Below are positions 25,001 to 46,226 of a DNA stretch of 64,000 nucleotides, in pieces. The stretch comes from Marsupella aquatica (lineage: Eukaryota; Plantae; Marchantiophyta): contig OZ316891.1 in assembly GCA_973895155.1 (NCBI GenBank), positions 5,737,708 to 5,801,707 of the forward strand. Direction: 5' to 3'. The notes below the pieces were generated by a model. The model saw nothing but the letters and a program-made list of their open reading frames with translations, ran no database searches and was not told the origin of the DNA. Each line of letters starts with the position of its first letter. Position 1 is the stretch's first letter. The translations under genes and the position numbers were made by a program.

Positions 25001-28000
25001 CCTCTGAAGCACTGTCAGATATTTGTTGGAAGACCGCGTATGACAAATCACCAATCCCTGTTGCAAATCTGTCAGGTATTCTGGAAGTGTTGATACAATC
25101 ACTTGCCGTTCCCAAGTCCGATGTATTTGCAGAAAATGCAGCCCATGCTTTAATGGGCTTAGCATTCTCTTGGGACGAGGCCATTCTACACCTAATTACA
25201 AATAAACAGGGCATACTAGCTAGTCTTGTGAATTGCTTGTATGAGCACTCCAAACCTCGTTTGCAATACAGGGCAGCGGGGGCTTTAGGAAATCTATCTA
25301 AATCAATAAATCAGTCTCTTAAGTTGAGAATTGTCAGTGAGGAGGGAGCACTGGTTGGCTTGGTGAATTGCTTGTCAAAGCATGACAAGGACAAGTTACA
25401 AGAAGCCGCAGCGCGCGCTTTGGCAAATCTGGCTGCTGCAAAAGATGAGTCTCTCAAGCTGAGAATCGCCACTGAGGAAGAGGCTCTGGTTGGCCTGGTG
25501 AATTGCTTGTCAAAGCATGACAAGCATGAGGTACAAGAACAAGCAGCACACGCTTTGGGAAATCTGGCTCGTACAGAAAATGAGTCTCTCAAGTTGAGAA
25601 TCGCCAATGAGGAGGGGGCTCTGGTTGGCTTGGTGAATTGCTTGTCAAAGCATGACAAGCATGAGGTACAAGAACAAGCAACACGCGCTTTGGGAAATCT
25701 GGCTCGTACAAAAGATGAGTCTCTCAAGTTGAGAATCGCCAGTGCCGAGGGGGCTTTGGTTACCTTGGTGAATTGCTTGTCAAAGCATGACAAGGACGAG
25801 TTACAAGAAGCCGCAGCAGGCGCTTTGGCAAATCTGGCTGCTGCAAAAGATGAGTCTCTCCAGTTGAGAATTGCCACTGAGGAGGGGGCTCTGGTTGGCC
25901 TAGTGAATTGCTTGTCAAAGCATGACAAGGACAAGTTACAAGAAGCCGCAGCATGCGCTCTGGCAAATCTGGCTGCTGCAAAAGATGAGTCTCTCAAGTT
26001 GAGAATCGTCAGTGAGGAGGGGGCTTTGGTTGGCCTGGTGAATTGCTTGTCAAAGCATGAAAATGACCAGTTACAAGAAGCCGCAGCATGCGCTTTGGCA
26101 AATCTGGCTGCTGCAAAAGATGAGTCTCTCAAGTTGAGAATCGCCAGTGAGGAGGGGGCTCTGGTTGGCCTGGTGAATTGCTTGTCAAAGCATGACAAGC
26201 ATGAGGTACAAGAACAAGCAGCACGCGCTTTGGCAAATCTGGCTCGTACAAAAGATGAGTCTCTCAAGTTGAGAATCGCTAGTGAAGAGGGAGCTCTGGT
26301 TGGCCTAGTGAATTGCTTCTCAAAGCATGACAAGCATGAGATACAAGAACAAGCAGCACGCGCTTTGGGAAATCTGGCTCGTACAAAAGATGAGTCTCTC
26401 AAGTTGAGAATCGCCAATGCGGAGGGGGCTTTGGTTGCCCTGGTGAATTGCTTGTCAAAGCATGACAAAGACAAGTTACAAGAAGCCGCAGCAGGCGCTT
26501 TGGCAAATCTGGCTGCTGCAAAAGATGAGTCTCTCAAGTTGAGAATCGCCAGTGAGGAGGGGGCTCTGATTGGCTTGGTGAATTGCTTGTCAAAGCATGA
26601 CAAGGAACAGTTACAAGCAGCCGCAACAGGCGCTTTGGCAAATCTGGCTGCTGCAAAAGATGAGTCTCTCCAATTGAGAATCGCCAATGAGGAGGGGGCT
26701 CTGGTTGGCCTGGTGAATTGCTTGTCAAAGCATGACAAGGACCAGTTACAAGCAGCCGCAGCATGCACTTTGGCAAATCTGGCTGCTGCAAAGGATGAGT
26801 CTCTCCAATTGAGAATCACCAGTGAGGAGGGGGCTCTGGTTGGCCTGGTGAATTGCTTGTCAAAGCATGACAAAGACCAGTTACAAGAAGCCGCAGCATG
26901 CGCTTTGGCAAATCTGACTGCTGCAAAAGATGAGTCTCTCAAGTTGAGAATCGCCAGTGAGGAGGGGGCTCTGGTTGGCCTGGTGAATTGCTTCTCAAAG
27001 CATGACAAGGACAACTTACAAGAAGCCGCCGGAGGCGCTTTGGCAAATCTGGCTGCTGCAAAAGATGAGTCTCTCAAGTTGAGAATTGCCAGTGAGGAGG
27101 GGGCTTTGGTTGGCCTAGTGAATTGTTTGTCACAATTTGAGAACCATGTTGTACAGACAGAGGCAGCAAGAATGGCGGCAATACTAACTTCTACTCCAGA
27201 TGTGAGGGGGGTCCTGAGAGGAGCAAAAGGCCTTGTGCAGGGACTTACAAGCTTGTTGGGAGATGACATGCATCCGGATACTCGACGTTTTGCAGTAAGA
27301 GCGTTGCTTAATATGGACCCGACAATAGCTAAGGAACTGGGCTTGCTGTCTGCACAGCTCGATGTGTCAACTTTAAGGTACGGGAACTTACCACTGATGT
27401 CAACACAAATTTCGATTCCATCAAGAATTTACAAAGAAAGAAGGAAAGAAGGAAGTTGATCATCGAGCAAAGTGGCCATTGTTAACAAAGAATCCTGTAG
27501 TAAGTAATGAAGGTAACCAAGATCAGTAGATACACATATGCCAAGATTCAACTTGATGACCATGAGAATAGGTAATCATATCGTAAACACTGTACTGTAG
27601 TACCATTCTGGTTAAAGAGGTGGTTTGAAAAGCTCTGTTGAATAGAGAATGTGTAGTGTGATGTTTTGAGGGTTAAAGTCGTCGTAGAGTTCAGAATTTC
27701 CAGAATCTTGAAGACATTATTTTCCTCATTTGCGTATAATTTGGCCTCGCTCAGGTAGCAGGCTTGAAGTAGGTCCTAGACATACATTCCAGGGAAAACG
27801 GAAGTTGCAAGTTGTCAGCCATTTGTGGCGAGCCATTGGACCTTAGGCTGGGACAGATTATTATAATTTCAAAATCCAACAGGTCTCCGGTATATTTGGA
27901 GAGCCTAGCTGCATTCTAACATAGATATTCATGAAATAAGATAGCAGCTAAATTAAATTGGAAAAGTCAGTGAACTGGTTTAAATCCCAGTGCACCTTAT

Positions 28001-28422
28001 CTGTTGAAGCGTAGCTAAGTGTGTAGTGCACCTTATTTGTTGTTTGTGATGGCAGTCTAAGAATTTGTGTAAAAGCAAAACTTGAAGACTTTCAAGGGGC
28101 ACTGGACGATGCCAATGAGGCAGTAAAAAGGAGCGACACGGTGACAGATGGCATGAAGGCGTTTATCTTGCAGGAGAGGGGTGTCTTGAAGCGAATGATG
28201 GGAGATCTGGAGGGCGCCCTCATAGATTTGGATGAAGGATTAAACCTAAAAGCCAATGACTACGAGAGGCTGAAGCACCGTGGTTATGTCAAATTCTTGC
28301 TAAATGACGTGGAAGGAGCTCGCGCAGATGCAGAATGGGCTCTATCAATCGAGTCCTCAAGGGATGACTCGGATACCTACTTGGGAGGAACATCCGCAGA
28401 ATACTTGGGGTACAAGCTGTAA
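22036..28422 (+). CDS. NLR-like STAND protein, ~1659 aa: helical N-terminus + NB-ARC-like NTPase + armadillo-repeat array + C-terminal TPRs (exons 22036-23091, 23216-24166, 24772-27377, 28056-28422)
   Basis: Four ORFs join in frame through GT-AG introns of phase 0, 0 and 2. Motifs: Walker A GGVGKGKST, Walker B ILMVLDDV, RNBS-B-like KILITSQ, GLPL-like GNPLAL, MHD-position WSLQSLV. ARM consensus (GALVGLVNCL...LQEAAA.ALANLA) occurs 15 times. TPR consensus in the last exon: (LRICVKAKLEDFQGALDDANEAV; ERGVLKRMMGDLEGALIDLDEGL; HRGYVKFLLNDVEGARADAEWAL). Confidence 0.88.
25228..27130 (+). repeat. Coding tandem array, 135-bp unit (45-aa ARM repeat), ~14 periods
   Basis: GTGAATTG recurs every 135 bp from 25228 to 27118 (15 occurrences). 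The internal 13 units differ by only a few substitutions and have no indels. Confidence 0.97.
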
Positions 28423-29981: not shown

Positions 29982-30240
29982 GCAACACCTAGAACCTGGG
30001 GCAAGAGAAAAACACTTGTAGAGTTGGAGAAAAGCAACACCTAGAACCTGGGGCAAGAGAAAAACACTTGCAGAGTTGGAGAAAAGCAACACCTAGAACC
30101 TGGGGCAAGAGAAAAAAACTTGTAGAGTTGGAGAAAAGCAACACCTAGAACCTGGGGCAAGAGAAAAAAACTTGTAGAGTTGGAGAAAAGCAACACCTAG
30201 AACCTGGGGCAAGAGAAAAACACTTGAAGAGTTGGAGAAA
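29982..30240. repeat. 52-bp tandem repeat x5
   Basis: GCAACACCTAGAACCTGGGGCAAGAGAAAAACACTTGTAGAGTTGGAGAAAA starts at 29982, 30034, 30086, 30138 and 30190, with no spacers. Confidence 0.95.
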
Positions 30241-35130: not shown

Positions 35131-36506
35131 TCTGTTGAACTTGAGTTGGGATGCTAGACTTGCGAGATCTAGGTCCTGAGGGGTTACTTACCGAGACGCT
35201 TGGTTGCTTGTGCAGACAGTGCGGACCGTTGAGTAGCAATCGTGTTGGAGAGCAAGTGCGGCTTCGTATGGGAGGGGTCGCAAGCGGTGCAAGGGGCACT
35301 AGGTTGCTTGCTCAAGGTATTCCGTGGAAGCGTTTGGGCACTAGGGGCACTTAGGCGTGGGTGCTGGGATTGGTAAGGGCGCTTGGTGGCGAAGTCCGTC
35401 ACTTCCCCCCTTGAGGTGTGTCTTCCCTCTGGGAATGTTTTATCGGTGCCACCCCCTTAGTTTGGATCTTTCCCTTTGGGATGACTTCTTGGATTTTTAC
35501 ATTCATCCTTTCTTTGGTCCTCTTGAATCCCTGGCCCTTTTCAGTCTGCCTCAATTTATGCATTGTGTAGCTTCTCAGTGACAGGTTTCATTGCTGTTGG
35601 AGTTTTCACGCTTTTGGCTTTTTATTTTGTTTATTTTGGGGAATGGATGAAAAATAATTTCCAAACAAGTACAATGCAGTGCATGCAGTGCAGTGAGAAC
35701 AAGGGAGTCCATCAACCACATCGATGAAAAACTCCACATTCATGCACAAATCCACTAAAGGGCCAAGACTGTTGGTTCCAGGGCCACTACCTAAACTCCT
35801 CTTTGTAACCCTCCTATTTGGTTTACTCCGAGCTTTACAAGGTTTATCAATTAGTATGGCTTTAGTTCCTTTGCCATTGTAGGGAACTTCGGGGCACTTG
35901 GCTCTTCCTGGGGTTTTCCTTTTAATACTTTTTCCCTCTGCTGGGTCTGCGGCCTCTACTTCATTTCTTCTGGGTTTGCCTTTTGTTCTTTGGTCCTCTT
36001 GATTTTTAGTATTCATCCTTTCTTTGGTCCTCTGGTGTATATAAATAACAGTGCCATATCCTGTTTTCTGGATTGTGGTTTTTGCCCCCTTTCCCCTGAA
36101 TTAATTAAAATTCAAAAATGATTGATTAGTACTGTACCATGGAAGCTTTGCTAACAGCAACTCAGTAACATACTGGCGCTCTTGCAACCTTGCAGTGATG
36201 GCCTAGAACTCCACTACGGTTTCTTATTAGGGTTTAAGCAGCCCTAACGATATCGAGGGTTTTGGGTCGCGAGAGTCCGAAAGAGGAACTGCAAACCTCG
36301 ATCAATCTCTTTACTCATTGTGGACCTTTCTCGAATTTCTATTGCATAGATTTCGAAATTGCAAAGGTCGAGCAGACCGATTCGGCGGAGGGATTTTGGC
36401 AATGCGAGAAGGAGAGGCATGGGGAATTCACGGGATTAATTTCTCGAGGAGAAAATGAGAACAGAGGTTTGACGAGAGAGCTTCGAGAAATTGAGTCGTC
36501 GTCGGG

Positions 36507-39500
36507 ATGGCGAAATCCGTAGCCACCCCTGTGGCTAAGCGGAAACTACGGTCAGCAAGTCCTCCTTCTCCCGCCCCAGCTCCCGTGCCCCCGCCCGATT
36601 CCGATTCCGAAGTGTCTGATGACCTTCTCCTGGACGATGAAGTATCGGACGAGGAATTGTCTGAGAACGAAATTTCATCTGGATCGGATTTGGCGGAGGG
36701 AGATGAACCCGATGGAGAAGATGCAGACAGCTCGAGTGCCGAGGAGGATGGGGAATCTGGTGAAGAGGAGGAAGGTGATTCTGATGACGAGGAATATGAT
36801 CCGGAAGAGGATATTGCGAAGGCTGTGAGAGAATTTGTAGGTCTAGAGTCCGATTCAGATGGCGAAGATGAGGAGGAGGAAGGAGAAGACGAGAAGGAGC
36901 CTGCGCTGAATTCCGAAGGAGGAGATGTGGCAGACTCTGATGGAGGTGACGAAGCCAACGGGGGAGGTGGAGAACATGCTGATGTTGCAAGGGAAATGGA
37001 GGAAATCCAAGCCGTAGAGGAAAGTGATAGTGAGGATGATGGTGAATTGGCACCTCGGAACACAATTGGAGAGGTTCCCCTAGTGTGGTACAAGGATGAG
37101 AAACACATTGGGTATGATATTGAAGGAAAGAAAATTACAAAGAAAGAGAAGAAAGATCAACTGGAGGCATTTTTGGCTCGGTCAGACAATTCCAAGGACT
37201 GGTGGGTTTTACTGAATTGCCCGATTCCTAGTTGTGCTTGGTCTTCGTTACCTTTCGGTCTACATATTCTGATTATACACATGCGTAACTTGCTGCATTA
37301 TTGGTAGAATGGACACAACAAATTTGAAGGTTGATGCGTAATGTGAATTTTCTCTCCCGTCTTAACACAGATAGAAGTGTTTAATCTTGGTTCGCTCTGG
37401 CAGGCGGAAGGTGTTTGATGAGTACAATGATGAGGAAATTGAGTTGACGAAAGACGAAATTGATATGATTCGAAGACTTCGTCAAGGAAGGACTCCACAC
37501 AAAGAAGTTAATCCATACGAGGTGTGTGTCGCTTGGAAACGCAGTTATTTCTCCTGGGAATGCTGAGCAACTGTCGTGGCGGTGGCCGTGGTAAATTTAA
37601 GGGAATTCGGAGCTTGAGGCCTTTACTACCCTCGAGGTCTCCTTAGCCTTCCCGTTCATCAGTTTGGGGTTATCCACCTACTTAAGAATTTACTCATGTA
37701 ATTTTCAGGTCTTCTTGGTTTAATTTTTGGTTGTTGCACGTTTCAGCCTTACGTTGATTGGTTCGAGTATGAAGATAAAGGCCACCCTCTATCCAGTGCA
37801 CCTGAGCCGAAAAGGAGGTTTATTCCCTCAAAATGGGAAGCAAAGAAGGTGTTTCTCACCTCCCCTAGTCTTTGCACATACTATTTTATGTACTGTTACC
37901 TCCTCTCAGCGTGATTTTGGAAAAGTAAGTTGAATCGGGATGACTATATACATTCAGAGATATACGCCAGTGCACAAGTCAGCTGTGCTTAGGCGACTAA
38001 CGAAAATTATGAACGACACCTTTACATATGAAGAGTCAGAGTTGGTATGGAATAACAGAGTGCGAATAAACTTTTTGGTATTACTTTCTGCTGGTCAGGT
38101 TGTAAAATTGGTGCGAGCCATCCGTAAAGGTTGGATATCTCTAGACAAACCGAAGGAGAAACCAAAATATTATTTATTGTGGGGAGATGATCTTCAAGCC
38201 ACAGAGAGGACTGCCAATGGTCTTGCTTATATCCCTGCTCCGAAACCCACGTTACCTGGTAACCCCCTCGATAAAAACGTTTTGTTGCAGTTCTGCGTTT
38301 GAACACTAGGTGGCAATGTGTTTGATGGAGAAGGAGCGGGCCCGTTCTCTTAGAAAACATTGTCGTTTCGGTTGAGCATTGCTATTTGACGAATGTCAAT
38401 GGCTAGATGGAATTTAGATTGTGTGCAACTCATAAATGTGGCTATGGATGGTTTCACAAGTTAAAATATGCCTCTTGGCTATAAGGACAGGGATGCGTCG
38501 AACTCACATTTTGATGACAGGTCATGAGGAGTCGTACAACCCACCAGAGGAGTACATTCCCACTCAGGAGGAAGTCAATGCTTATCAGCTTATGTACGAA
38601 GAAGATAGGCCTAAGTTTATTCCCAGGAAGTGAGTATTCTTCAAAATGGGAATCTCGTCCACTCTTCTGTGGATACAAGGGTTTACAGGAATTTCTTTAT
38701 GGTACTTGGCATTAATCATTAGGACGTTCTGTCGGTAAAGTATATCGGTATACTACGATGATCTGGGTAGCTATTGCCTACAACGTACATTCTTTAATTG
38801 GGGCCAGATTTATGCCTCAAATAATTGTCTCAAATATATGTTTGGTTCTAGTTTATGTATGCTGGTTGTATTGCATCAGGTACGATGCACTTCGGAAAGT
38901 TCCTTCTTACCCAGAGTATATCAAAGAGCAGTTCGAACGATGTTTGGACCTGTACTTGTGTCCACGATCACGGAAGAAGAGGGTGAGAATAGTAACCACC
39001 TCTACGTTTGTTGGTAATTCTAATGTTTCATGGTTTTGACAACGTTCGTCTATGTTTCTTCCGTTTTGTGGACTCTGATGCTATGCATTTGGAGCAGATA
39101 AACATTGATCCAGAGTCCCTCATTCCCAAACTTCCGAACCCAAGAGATCTACAGCCGTTTCCAACAACTTTCTTCTTGGAGTATCGGGGCCACACTGGAG
39201 CAGTGAATAGCATTGCTACTTCTCCGTGTGGAGAGTGGTTGGCTTCAGGTACCTATGGGTTGTGTGTCATAGTTGCTGATGTCTACTTTCATTTCTCTAA
39301 GTTGTGAGGACCTAGATGTATGCAATATGCACCAGATTTCTAAGGAAATAGCCCAGGGCTGTCCTTGAATTATGAGTTCTCTTTACTCAAGGAAAATTTC
39401 TCCTGTGATTCCATTACAGTCCAGCTGATCCCTGGTTTTTTGTTGAAGGTTCACACGATGGAAATGTACGTCTCTGGGAAGTACAAACTGGGAGGTGCCG

Positions 39501-44260: not shown

Positions 44261-44370
44261 GGCTAAAAGTTACGGCCCTAACCCCGCTCTGGTCCAGGCA
44301 ACCCCCCTGGTCCAGGCAACCCCCTCTTGGTTCATCGATGCGCGGCAACTCTAATCGAGTCTAAATTGAC

Positions 44371-44826
44371 CATAACTTTTGGCCCCTAAGTCCGTTGGCC
44401 AAAAAATATGTGGTCCCATGATCGGGCTCATGTGGGGCTTCTCAGGCCCCTATGGTGATCCGTTGGAAAAATAATTCATTTTTCCATGATCGGCAACGGG
44501 CCCAAACTACAAGCATGCGGCTTGAGTCGGCCATAACTTTTGGCCCCTGGGTCCGTTGATCAAGAAATATGCGACCCCATGATCGGGCTCATGTGGGGCT
44601 TCTTGGGCCCCTATGGTGATCCATTGAAAAAATAGTTCATTTTTCCATGATCGGGAACGGGCCCAAACTACAAGCATGCGGCTTGAGTCGGCCATAACTT
44701 TTGGCCCCTGGGTCCGTTGACCGAGAAATATACGGTCCCATGATCGGGCTCATATAGGGCTTCTTGGGCCCCTATGGTGATCCGTCAGAAAAATAGTTCA
44801 TATTTCTGTGATCAGCAATGGGCCCA
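44371..44826. repeat. 161-bp tandem repeat x~2.8
   Basis: CATAACTTTTGGCCCCT starts at 44371, 44532 and 44693. Confidence 0.92.
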
Positions 44827-46226
44827 ATAAAGTTAATTGGAATGCGCTTTTTTCAAGTCTTGTCTTTGCTCTTACTAGCCTCCTCTTTGTTAGTCGCATC
44901 TTTAATGGTCATGATAGTAGCAAATCTAAGAGGGACTCAACGCTGGAAATAGGCAACGCCGGAACAATTACAAGTAGATGAAAATTGTATTCGCAACTTG
45001 AAAACCCTCAGGTAAGCAACCATGGGGCATCCATTTTGAACAATTTCTTCCAAGCGAGGCTTTCTCCTCACATTCTGTCACCATCTCGAGTATACTGGTG
45101 ACTTCGATTCACTCAGAAGTAACTATAGTAGGGCTTTTCCACAACTTTTCTGGGAGTTTCCATAATACTTGAGTTAAACGTTTTGGGGGGTTCCCATAAT
45201 AATTGGGTTATGGGAGGTCTTTATCTTGGCGGTATCTTGTCAACTCCAAACTTTGAAACCCCTAGTGTAGACATTCAAGGTTTGCTGTCCCTGGGTCTAT
45301 TGTGCTGTTGTGGCCCATTTTGATTCCCGAAATCCCATTGATTTCACCAAACTCCCTTGATTTAATCAAACACCCAGCCCTAAGGTGAGATTGGAGGATT
45401 GATGGAGTGACAAGAACAACGGATTTCAGGTGACGATCATTCAAAATGCCACTCAGTAGAACTAGTTCATGACAAAGACATGGGTTGGACTCATAGACGG
45501 CTTGGCCCTGAGTCATACTGCGTCATGCCACTAAAGTCAAGTCGGTGAAAAGTGCAACATACAGCCACGAAAGTCGAAGGAGAGCAGAACTCTAATGTAC
45601 TCTAATTCAAAAGAATAGGAAGGAAGCAAAAACGACGACATTCAAACCAGAACGATCATCGGCCACTTGAAAAATCAGGTCGAGATGTCAATCCTAAGTT
45701 GACGAAGAACAACGGCCTTGTCCCAGAGCCACCATCAGAATGAGAACTCAGTGATAACGAACTGGAAGAGATAATGTATCTCCTTAATGTCATCCTAGAG
45801 AGCTGCTTTTCTTTCTGCAGCAATCAAGAAAATTGCCTCTTAATGTGGCATGATCACCAGAACCCCACATTCGGAGACTGGATCACTAATCTACAACTCT
45901 ACGACTGCAAGTGGACATGTTGTTCCGCTTCTAGACCCCAAGGCCTAACAGATGCGGTTCACTGACTCATCTATTTTTACAATCGTGAGACTTTCAAGAA
46001 GTGAATTTGGGTAGAGCAGGAGAGGTGGACTGCGCGCATTCACTCCTGCCCGAAGGATTACCCACAACCACAGATTTAGGTACCACTACACCAAGACCTG
46101 GGCACTCGTGCCCACTTGGCTCAAAGATAATTTTGCTTTCTCGTTTTTTGGGTTAAGCACCGCTTTTGAACTTGGTATCTGTTAATTGAAATGATTCCTA
46201 TGATACAACTTGACCCCTCCCAAGGG

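Follow-up and report, generated by a model that had tools for sequence, protein, structure and literature searches.

The diversity of plant NOD-like receptors (NLRs) is usually attributed to many paralogues with divergent leucine-rich repeats (LRRs). Fungal NLRs are known to diversify through near-identical repeats that evolve in concert and differ at a few hypervariable contacts. In those with near-identical WD40, ankyrin (ANK) and tetratricopeptide (TPR) repeats, the variable and selected sites lie on the binding face (Dyrka et al. 2014, PMC4986451). That survey describes highly conserved repeats as rare in plants, at 0.4% of the ANK, TPR and WD repeats in Viridiplantae. Here we describe an NB-ARC gene with an armadillo (ARM) repeat array in a stretch of 64,000 nucleotides from the liverwort Marsupella aquatica (assembly GCA_973895155.1, contig OZ316891.1, positions 5,737,708 to 5,801,707 of the forward strand). 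The whole stretch is called the window, and positions are counted from its first letter. An earlier note, made from the letters alone, had proposed that this array consists of homogenised repeats whose variation is concentrated at predicted peptide-groove positions. The analysis supports a concentration of change on the groove face, and the observation was real with some overstatement. The note's reading of the array as a rapidly reshuffled, modular peptide sensor is partly supported.

Two further systems are close to this locus. The NB-ARC-ARM architecture itself is already known in plants, from RLS1 and the coiled-coil (CC) NB-ARM proteins. Rice RLS1 is a CC-NB-ARC-ARM protein of 1040 amino acids (aa), and its activated form triggers cell death resembling the hypersensitive response (PMC10030324). 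CC-NB-ARMs are listed in a survey of fern NLRs and are said there to be conserved across plant genomes (PMC12512272). The other system is the designed armadillo repeat proteins (ArmRPs), which share their fold with importin-alpha. In designed binders, helix 3 residues from a pair of neighbouring repeats together form a pocket, and specificity has been switched by altering residues 29, 30 and 33 (PMC11228518). Their conserved Asn residues form a ladder that grips every second peptide bond (PMC6838082).

An intact NB-ARC gene with a homogenised armadillo array

The gene is intact, with 1659 codons in four exons, GT-AG boundaries at each of the three introns and no stop before the terminal one (Table 1). 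The product reads, in order, a helical N-terminal domain, NB-ARC, about 19 ARM repeats and a C-terminal TPR domain, and the full-length relatives agree with this order. Pfam family NB-ARC (PF00931) matched residues 174-333 of the exon 1 open reading frame (ORF) with an E value of 5.6e-14 and 52.4 bits, against a cut-off of 23.5. The Arm family matched the ARM exon in 13 stretches (E = 5.4e-88). TPR matches in the last exon were weak and all below the cut-off, and were clearer in the relatives. LRR families were absent from the Pfam matches of the gene, which carries ARM and TPR repeats instead and so is not a canonical NB-LRR gene.

The closest sequences found were two unnamed proteins of another liverwort, Calypogeia fissa, P0126 (1551 aa) and P0007 (1514 aa). 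The four-exon model is supported because it has exon-by-exon homology to P0007. The NB-ARC exon was 55% identical to this protein, exon 2 was 54% identical to its residues 551-838, and exon 4 was 69% identical to its last 121 residues and reached its C terminus. Exon 1 was 53% identical to P0126 across 99% of the exon. On balance, this NB-ARC (STAND) protein with its armadillo array is probably an intracellular receptor of the immune type.

Tandem Repeats Finder reported a single array at 25313-27132, with a period of 135 bp, 13.5 copies, 90% matches, no indels and a score of 2793, in an open frame of 906 codons on the plus strand. Together with the Pfam Arm matches, this confirmed the homogenised 135-bp ARM array of 13 units described in the earlier note. 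An antisense ORF of 705 codons (25311-27428, minus strand) was rejected as a gene, since it is a by-product of stop-free periodic sequence.

The 13 units (numbered 0 to 12) had a mean pairwise DNA identity of 89%, with 50 of the 135 nucleotide columns variable, and the synonymous pairwise difference (pS, 0.14) was larger than the non-synonymous one (pN, 0.10). The claim that the units are near-identical in DNA, synonymous sites included, was therefore overstated. Amino-acid identity averaged 81% (range, 67-93%), and was 85.7% within subtype A (nine units, 405 aa) and 89.3% within subtype B; these values come from a measure other than that used in the fungal survey, where repeats count as highly internally conserved at >85% identity over at least 100 aa (PMC4986451). 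The two subtypes, B (units 1, 2, 6 and 7) and A (units 0, 3, 4, 5 and 8-12), form the deepest split in the unit tree. Subtype B is marked by H27, E28, V/I29, Q32, R42 and T43. The 10 nucleotide changes between the subtypes all fall in codons 27-43, and none is fixed in codons 1-26. The linked variants recorded previously (A/Q at codon 32, AA/RT at codons 42-43, and variants of the loop between helices 2 and 3) are present; they represent two subtypes and not 13 independent draws.

Asn39 was present in all 13 units and in the flanking unit -1. The residue four positions before it (Asn-4, codon 35) read R,H,R,G,C,C,R,R,G,G,C,C,G across the units, exactly as first noted, with R, G and C four times each and H once.

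The array is in register with peptide-binding armadillo proteins

The structure of exon 3 was predicted with AlphaFold2 (AF2), using an alignment with 12 relatives. The model had a mean predicted local distance difference test score (pLDDT) of 91.2 and a predicted template modelling score of 0.78, and contained 57 helices in about 19 three-helix repeats. In each unit, helix 1 (H1) spans codons 1-9, helix 2 (H2) codons 13-21 and helix 3 (H3) codons 27-41. The top Foldseek match was the engineered ARM protein 4rv1 (TM score of 0.92, normalised to the target; root mean square deviation, 2.2 Å), followed by Vac8, beta-catenin and karyopherins. A phmmer search against the PDB matched 4rv1 (1.7e-40) and the designed protein 4plr (Arm00008; 6.3e-29), as well as 4db8, 1ejl and importin-alpha.

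In the phmmer alignment, column 39 corresponds to the ladder Asn of the designed repeat, column 35 to its Trp, column 32 to its Glu and column 31 to its Gln. Column 28 corresponds to the Gln opening H3, column 38 to the residue preceding the Asn, and columns 42-43 to the Ser-Gly following it. Further library positions of designed ARM proteins are numbered 4, 26, 36, 40 and 41. On this alignment, codons 28, 31, 32, 35, 38, 42 and 43 (and 4) are the predicted specificity positions.

The window array thus shares with designed ArmRPs and importin-alpha the fold, the register and the invariant H3 Asn, as well as identical internal repeats. Its variable columns coincide with the residues engineered for pocket specificity (29, 30 and 33) in designed ArmRPs (PMC11228518). 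It differs from them in having units of 45 residues rather than 42, the extra residues lying after H1 and in the H2-H3 loop, in having R, H, G or C at Asn-4 in place of Trp, and in being part of a STAND receptor rather than a transport adaptor.

Amino-acid change concentrates on the predicted groove face

Changes were counted on a maximum-likelihood tree of the units with parsimony reconstruction. Over the whole array, 46.5 non-synonymous (N) and 27.5 synonymous (S) changes were counted, giving a dN/dS ratio (omega) of 0.52. The counted ratio was 0.49 in H1, 0.09 in the loop at codons 10-12, 0.22 in H2, 0.18 in the loop at codons 22-26, 1.64 in H3 and 1.43 in the loop at codons 42-45. Helices 1 and 2 and the loops ahead of helix 3 are under constraint; helix 3 is not.

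The mapped groove columns (4, 28, 31, 32, 35, 38, 42 and 43), a set that drew partly on the library positions of designed ARM proteins and was settled once the data were in view, held 17.5 N and 1.5 S changes, compared with 29 and 26 elsewhere (Fisher's test, p = 0.003; omega, 3.6 versus 0.34). Because this set was chosen with knowledge of the data, a second set of columns was taken from the Calypogeia arrays alone. These columns (32, 38, 28, 35, 4, 25, 31 and 39) held 15.5 N and 1.5 S changes in the window array, versus 31 and 26 elsewhere (p = 0.011). When CpG transitions were dropped, the counts were 13 and 1 versus 29 and 23 (p = 0.012), and a second contrast of this kind gave a p value of 0.006. 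The eight mapped columns carried 12 of the 35 extra amino-acid states (binomial p = 0.014). By alignment, the excess changes fall at columns predicted to match the pocket residues Gln29, Glu30 and Trp33 (together with 26, 36, 40 and 41) of designed binders.

In H3, variability had a helical moment of 0.49 for the Calypogeia arrays (permutation p = 0.006) and of 0.41 for the window array (p = 0.065), and both moments aim at the Asn39-bearing face (columns 28, 32, 35, 39, 31 and 38). The clustering on this face that the earlier note had expected was thus found. The concentration at groove positions that it had described is significant and is not exclusive: among the codons outside the mapped set, codon 9 changed five times and codons 8 and 34 three times each, and codon 16 also varies.

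These last changes are among several points that weigh against reading the array as a recognition surface, as does the way in which the mapped set was fixed. An omega above 1 at the groove columns was not established, with binomial p values of 0.04-0.14 for the mapped set and 0.16-0.39 for the independent set. Of the per-codon dN/dS comparison proposed earlier, the non-synonymous enrichment therefore came out, and an omega above 1 did not. A fully relaxed constraint on a surface would fit this result equally well. Against 13 non-groove columns that are polar and probably exposed (N 11, S 6), the mapped columns stood out only at p = 0.11. The placement on a concave face is derived from the alignment and from helical phase rather than from measured exposure. 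An importin-alpha-type Trp at Asn-4 was found in 0 of the 13 units; of the importin and designed-ARM register claimed at first, the Asn-4, Asn-7 and ladder columns align with Trp, Glu and Asn, and the Trp ladder is absent. Eight of the 10 CpG nucleotides in the consensus are variable, versus 42 of the 125 others, and they include codons 28 and 35. The four-gamete test was failed by 60 of the 210 informative site pairs, and the unit tree ignores exchange between units. This count suggests mosaicism or recurrent mutation. A test for inter-unit exchange similar to the pairwise homoplasy index was not significant and went in the wrong direction (observed, 0.356; permuted mean, 0.286; p = 0.99). 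At the other end of the protein, the AF2 model of the N-terminal domain was all-helical with low confidence (pLDDT of 64), and the domain had no match in Pfam and none from Foldseek at an E value of ≤0.001.

The main rival is that the pattern is a neutral by-product. In this case, recent block duplication, a constrained core and packing, free drift at the exposed helix 3 and CpG deamination would have produced the array, which would have one fixed partner or serve only the auto-inhibition of the NB-ARC. We consider this possible, though distinctly less probable than a receptor of the immune type. It agrees with the overall counted dN/dS of 0.52 and with the lack of a significant omega above 1. 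It also agrees with the excess of variable CpG nucleotides. At codon 35, the string of states requires only three changes on the unit tree, and the states TGC and CAC are each one CpG transition from CGC. Identity between units was higher at a shift of five units (0.915) than at a shift of one (0.902), a hint that block duplication copied part of the unit pattern. Together with CpG mutation, such duplication accounts for part of the codon 35 pattern. Over the part of the array covered by reads (see below), the runs of two coded organisms, A and B, differed at a single site, 25337 G>C, found in both B runs and in neither A run. It changes codon 9 of unit 0 from AGT (Ser) to ACT (Thr), and Ser, Thr and Asn alternate at codon 9 between units.

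However, two things weaken drift as an explanation: the polar loops are conserved, and independent arrays vary at the same columns. The loops at codons 10-12 and 22-26 are polar and probably exposed, and they are conserved. Across seven homogenised unit classes, taken from four Calypogeia proteins, variability was highest at columns 32, 38, 28, 35 and 4. The five units of P0007 are identical at all but 5 of their 45 columns, with 6 of the 9 extra states at columns 31, 32 and 35. The enrichment also outlasts the removal of CpG transitions, and all of the nucleotide differences between subtypes A and B are confined to codons 27-43.

A family of NB-ARC-ARM proteins in liverworts

Searches with the ARM exon and with exon 1 returned a small set of liverwort proteins, together with ordinary ARM proteins such as ARABIDILLO. 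At least seven were Calypogeia fissa proteins with both NB-ARC and Arm (P0006-P0010, P0015 and P0126), 1416-1551 aa long and 39-55% identical in NB-ARC. Other relatives came from Riccia fluitans, Marchantia polymorpha and M. paleacea, and several had a C-terminal TPR domain. Several of the Calypogeia proteins had homogenised arrays, with units 45, 89/90 or 135 residues long: P0126 has ten and P0007 five units of 45 residues, P0008 a double unit of 89 residues and P0009 a triple unit of 135 residues.

P0126 and P0007 resemble the window gene in their NB-ARC-ARM-TPR body, in their homogenised 45-residue units and in the same hypervariable columns. They differ from it in species, in an identity of only about 40-60% and in the Trp at column 35 of some units. 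No literature was found on either protein, and both are unannotated. The N-terminal domain of P0126 is of the same type as in the window gene, whereas that of P0007 is different and longer. The helical type was found in the window gene, P0126, P0006, P0008 and P0009, and the different, longer type in P0007 and P0010. Since similar bodies bear different N termini, the N-terminal domains are re-assorted within the family. The paralogue set is a lineage-specific expansion typical of immune receptors.

These paralogues also bear on a second alternative, that the gene encodes a conserved housekeeping or regulatory NB-ARC-ARM(-TPR) scaffold, either RLS1-like or a TPR and ARM co-chaperone like UNC-45, whose array is a lineage quirk without a role in recognition. 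Relatives with divergent ARM repeats and the same C-terminal TPR domain exist in Marchantia, Riccia and Calypogeia (P0013, P0015, P0115 and P0011), two of them (P0011 and P0115) bear the automatic name "unc-45 homolog", and the reported conservation of CC-NB-ARMs across plant genomes (PMC12512272) would suit such a role. Still, at least seven diverged paralogues in one species, with different N termini on similar bodies, is not the pattern of a single-copy housekeeping gene, and even RLS1 is tied to cell death and resistance (PMC10030324). We regard a scaffold of this kind as improbable.

Two side observations concern the ends of these proteins. The TPR tail (...YLGYKL) is kept from Marchantia to the window gene, in P0007, P0010, P0013, P0015, P0115 and P0126. 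Its conservation is far above that of the ARM array, and chaperone docking is one possible role. In place of the N-terminal region encoded at 22036-22480 in the window, residues 1-330 of P0007 and 1-300 of P0010 form a long extension with a GHCFGG or GHSVGG motif, which in our reading resembles the nucleophile elbow of hydrolases; Pfam gave no family there in P0007 at an E value of ≤0.001.

Read support for the array

Contigs from four sequencing runs of two studies covered the array at ≥99% likeness in 21-28 of 30 bins of 74 bp, leaving 2 bins uncovered in run X1, 5 in X2, 5 in X3 and 9 in X4. Unit-specific pieces such as 25631-25738, 26390-26468 and 26713-26848 were found with no differences in X1 and X2, and recurred in the two runs of the second study. 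In X1, their depth was 19-38, compared with about 20 in the single-copy flanks. None of the runs X1-X5 yielded a contig spanning the array, and the number and order of the units are therefore those of the assembly. The fifth run held a copy with flanks differing by about 5-7%.

Arrays with high internal conservation are hard to assemble (PMC12222747), and the missing spanning contig and uncovered bins leave room for a mis-assembled unit number, order or sequence; nevertheless, with unit-specific pieces matched exactly, at a depth near that of the flanks and again in a second study, and with an array that is in frame, free of indels and made of 13 distinct units, an assembly artefact is very improbable.

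Some contigs had joints within the array, with skips of 1309, 499 and 229 bases and back-steps of 740 and 176 bases. They were rejected as alleles since none is a multiple of 135, and are read as paths of the word graph through paralogous or repeated words. Separately, contigs exited the array at 25520, 25917, 26052 and 26195 into similar, non-identical repeat sequence. These exits show that further ARM arrays of the same type are present in the same read sets, as paralogues or alleles.

A putative repeat-based peptide sensor and its relation to known systems

The comparison with fungal NLRs made in the earlier note fits, as the array lies in an NB-ARC gene. Like the fungal HET-E, HET-D and other NWD NLRs, the window gene encodes a STAND NTPase with near-identical, superstructure-forming repeats arrayed in tandem after it. 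The variable positions are on the ligand-binding face (a prediction here), and N-terminal domains are re-assorted among paralogues. The differences are the host, a liverwort rather than a fungus, and the repeat type, since the fungal survey found WD, ANK and TPR only and reported no ARM (PMC4986451). Repeat-number polymorphism and significant positive selection are demonstrated in the fungal genes, whereas here one allele was read. The window gene also has a conserved TPR domain after the array, unlike the fungal NLRs. By analogy, it may be viewed as the equivalent, in a plant and on ARM repeats, of the fungal NLRs whose repeats are highly conserved. RLS1 shares with it a plant NB-ARC with ARM in place of LRR and offers a precedent for immune signalling by such an architecture. 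Compared by its description (PMC10030324), RLS1 has three ARM motifs and no homogenised array, whereas ARM repeats number about 19 in the window protein, with a mean identity of 81% among 13 of them, and a TPR domain follows. In the literature searched, no plant NLR was found to be described with homogenised ARM arrays and hypervariable residues in the groove, although the supplements of Chia et al. 2024 may list such genes.

If the window protein is a receptor, part of a ligand protein would lie extended in the groove, held there by the Asn ladder, and variable columns from adjacent repeats would make up the side-chain pockets. Recent duplication, and probably exchange between units, would keep the core and the H1/H2 scaffold uniform while amino-acid changes build up on the face of H3 that bears the Asn. 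New combinations of pockets would then come from point mutations, some of them at CpG, and from the duplication of near-identical units and exchange between them. Ligand binding may release the NB-ARC switch, leading to oligomerisation and to signalling via the N-terminal helical domain, as in other NLRs.

A more specific model, which we put forward tentatively and consider rather unlikely to hold in full, is that of a leafy-liverwort NLR family with a recombining stack of near-identical ARM repeats. Each pair of repeats would form one pocket set by four to six hypervariable helix 3 residues, and unit duplication, exchange and mutation would rewrite the linear peptide that is read, from a pathogen or a guarded host protein. 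Equally speculative is the idea that such a family would be the plant analogue of HET-E-type receptors and would match, in nature, the peptide code engineered into armadillo proteins.

The signature known from fungal NLRs is now seen in an NB-ARC family of land plants, and on a solenoid for which designed proteins have made the geometry of peptide binding unusually clear. Should the receptor reading prove true, repeat shuffling would count as a convergent way in which early-diverging land plants diversify their receptors. A testable model of ligand binding would then be at hand for NB-ARC-ARM proteins, among them the poorly understood RLS1 class, and natural pocket variants could be compared with engineered armadillo modules.

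Features of the gene and its surroundings

Table 1. Positions of exons, motifs and repeat units of the NB-ARC-ARM gene in the window.
Feature	Position	Strand	Description
Exon 1	22036..23091	+	Helical N-terminal domain (about aa 1-150) and first part of NB-ARC; GT donor at 23092
P-loop GGVGKGKST	22570-22596	+	In frame, exon 1
Walker-B-like ILMVLDDV	22855-22878	+	In frame, exon 1
KILITSQ motif	22936-22956	+	Exon 1
Exon 2	23216..24166	+	Remaining NB-ARC/ARC, linker and acidic low-complexity tail; GT-AG introns on either side
GLPL-like GNPLAL	23249-23266	+	In frame, exon 2
Exon 3	24772..27377	+	ARM domain, about 19 three-helix repeats
Diverged upstream flanking ARM unit (unit -1)	25177..25311	+	Retains Asn39 and Asn19
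Homogenised array	25312..27066	+	13 in-frame units of 135 bp (45 aa), all distinct
14th unit, first 22 codons	27067..27132	+	Still equal to the consensus; homogenisation stops here and the remainder is diverged
Exon 4	28056..28422	+	C-terminal TPR-like domain, ending in ...EYLGYKL and a stop; splice phase fits (AG/T, giving Ser)

Some minor features of the gene were also recorded. In a protein atlas, the neighbours of exon 1 were plant Rx_N/RPW8 and fungal HeLo NB-ARC clusters (0.91-0.94), which we take as a lead only. The NRC3 resistosome (Foldseek E = 0.22) and Rx-CC (E = 1.6) were too weak as fold matches of the N-terminal domain and were left unused. At the end of exon 2 (24070-24150) lies the acidic low-complexity stretch EEQLGEELGEEFDEELGEGAGEESDEEVREE, which P0007 is without (an alignment gap of 25 residues). 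In intron 3, one contig each in X1 and X2 joined 27507 to 27688, omitting 180 bases, possibly an indel allele of the intron.

No second NLR was found in the window among the 17 other ORFs scanned with Pfam, where the only match was BOP1NT. This ORF (36495-37307, plus strand; E = 1e-10) carries the N-terminal domain of the ribosome-biogenesis protein BOP1 and represents an ordinary neighbouring gene. Further tandem repeats lie at 29982-30240 (52 bp, 5.0 copies, 97% matches) and at 44370-44827 (161 bp, 2.8 copies, 89% matches).

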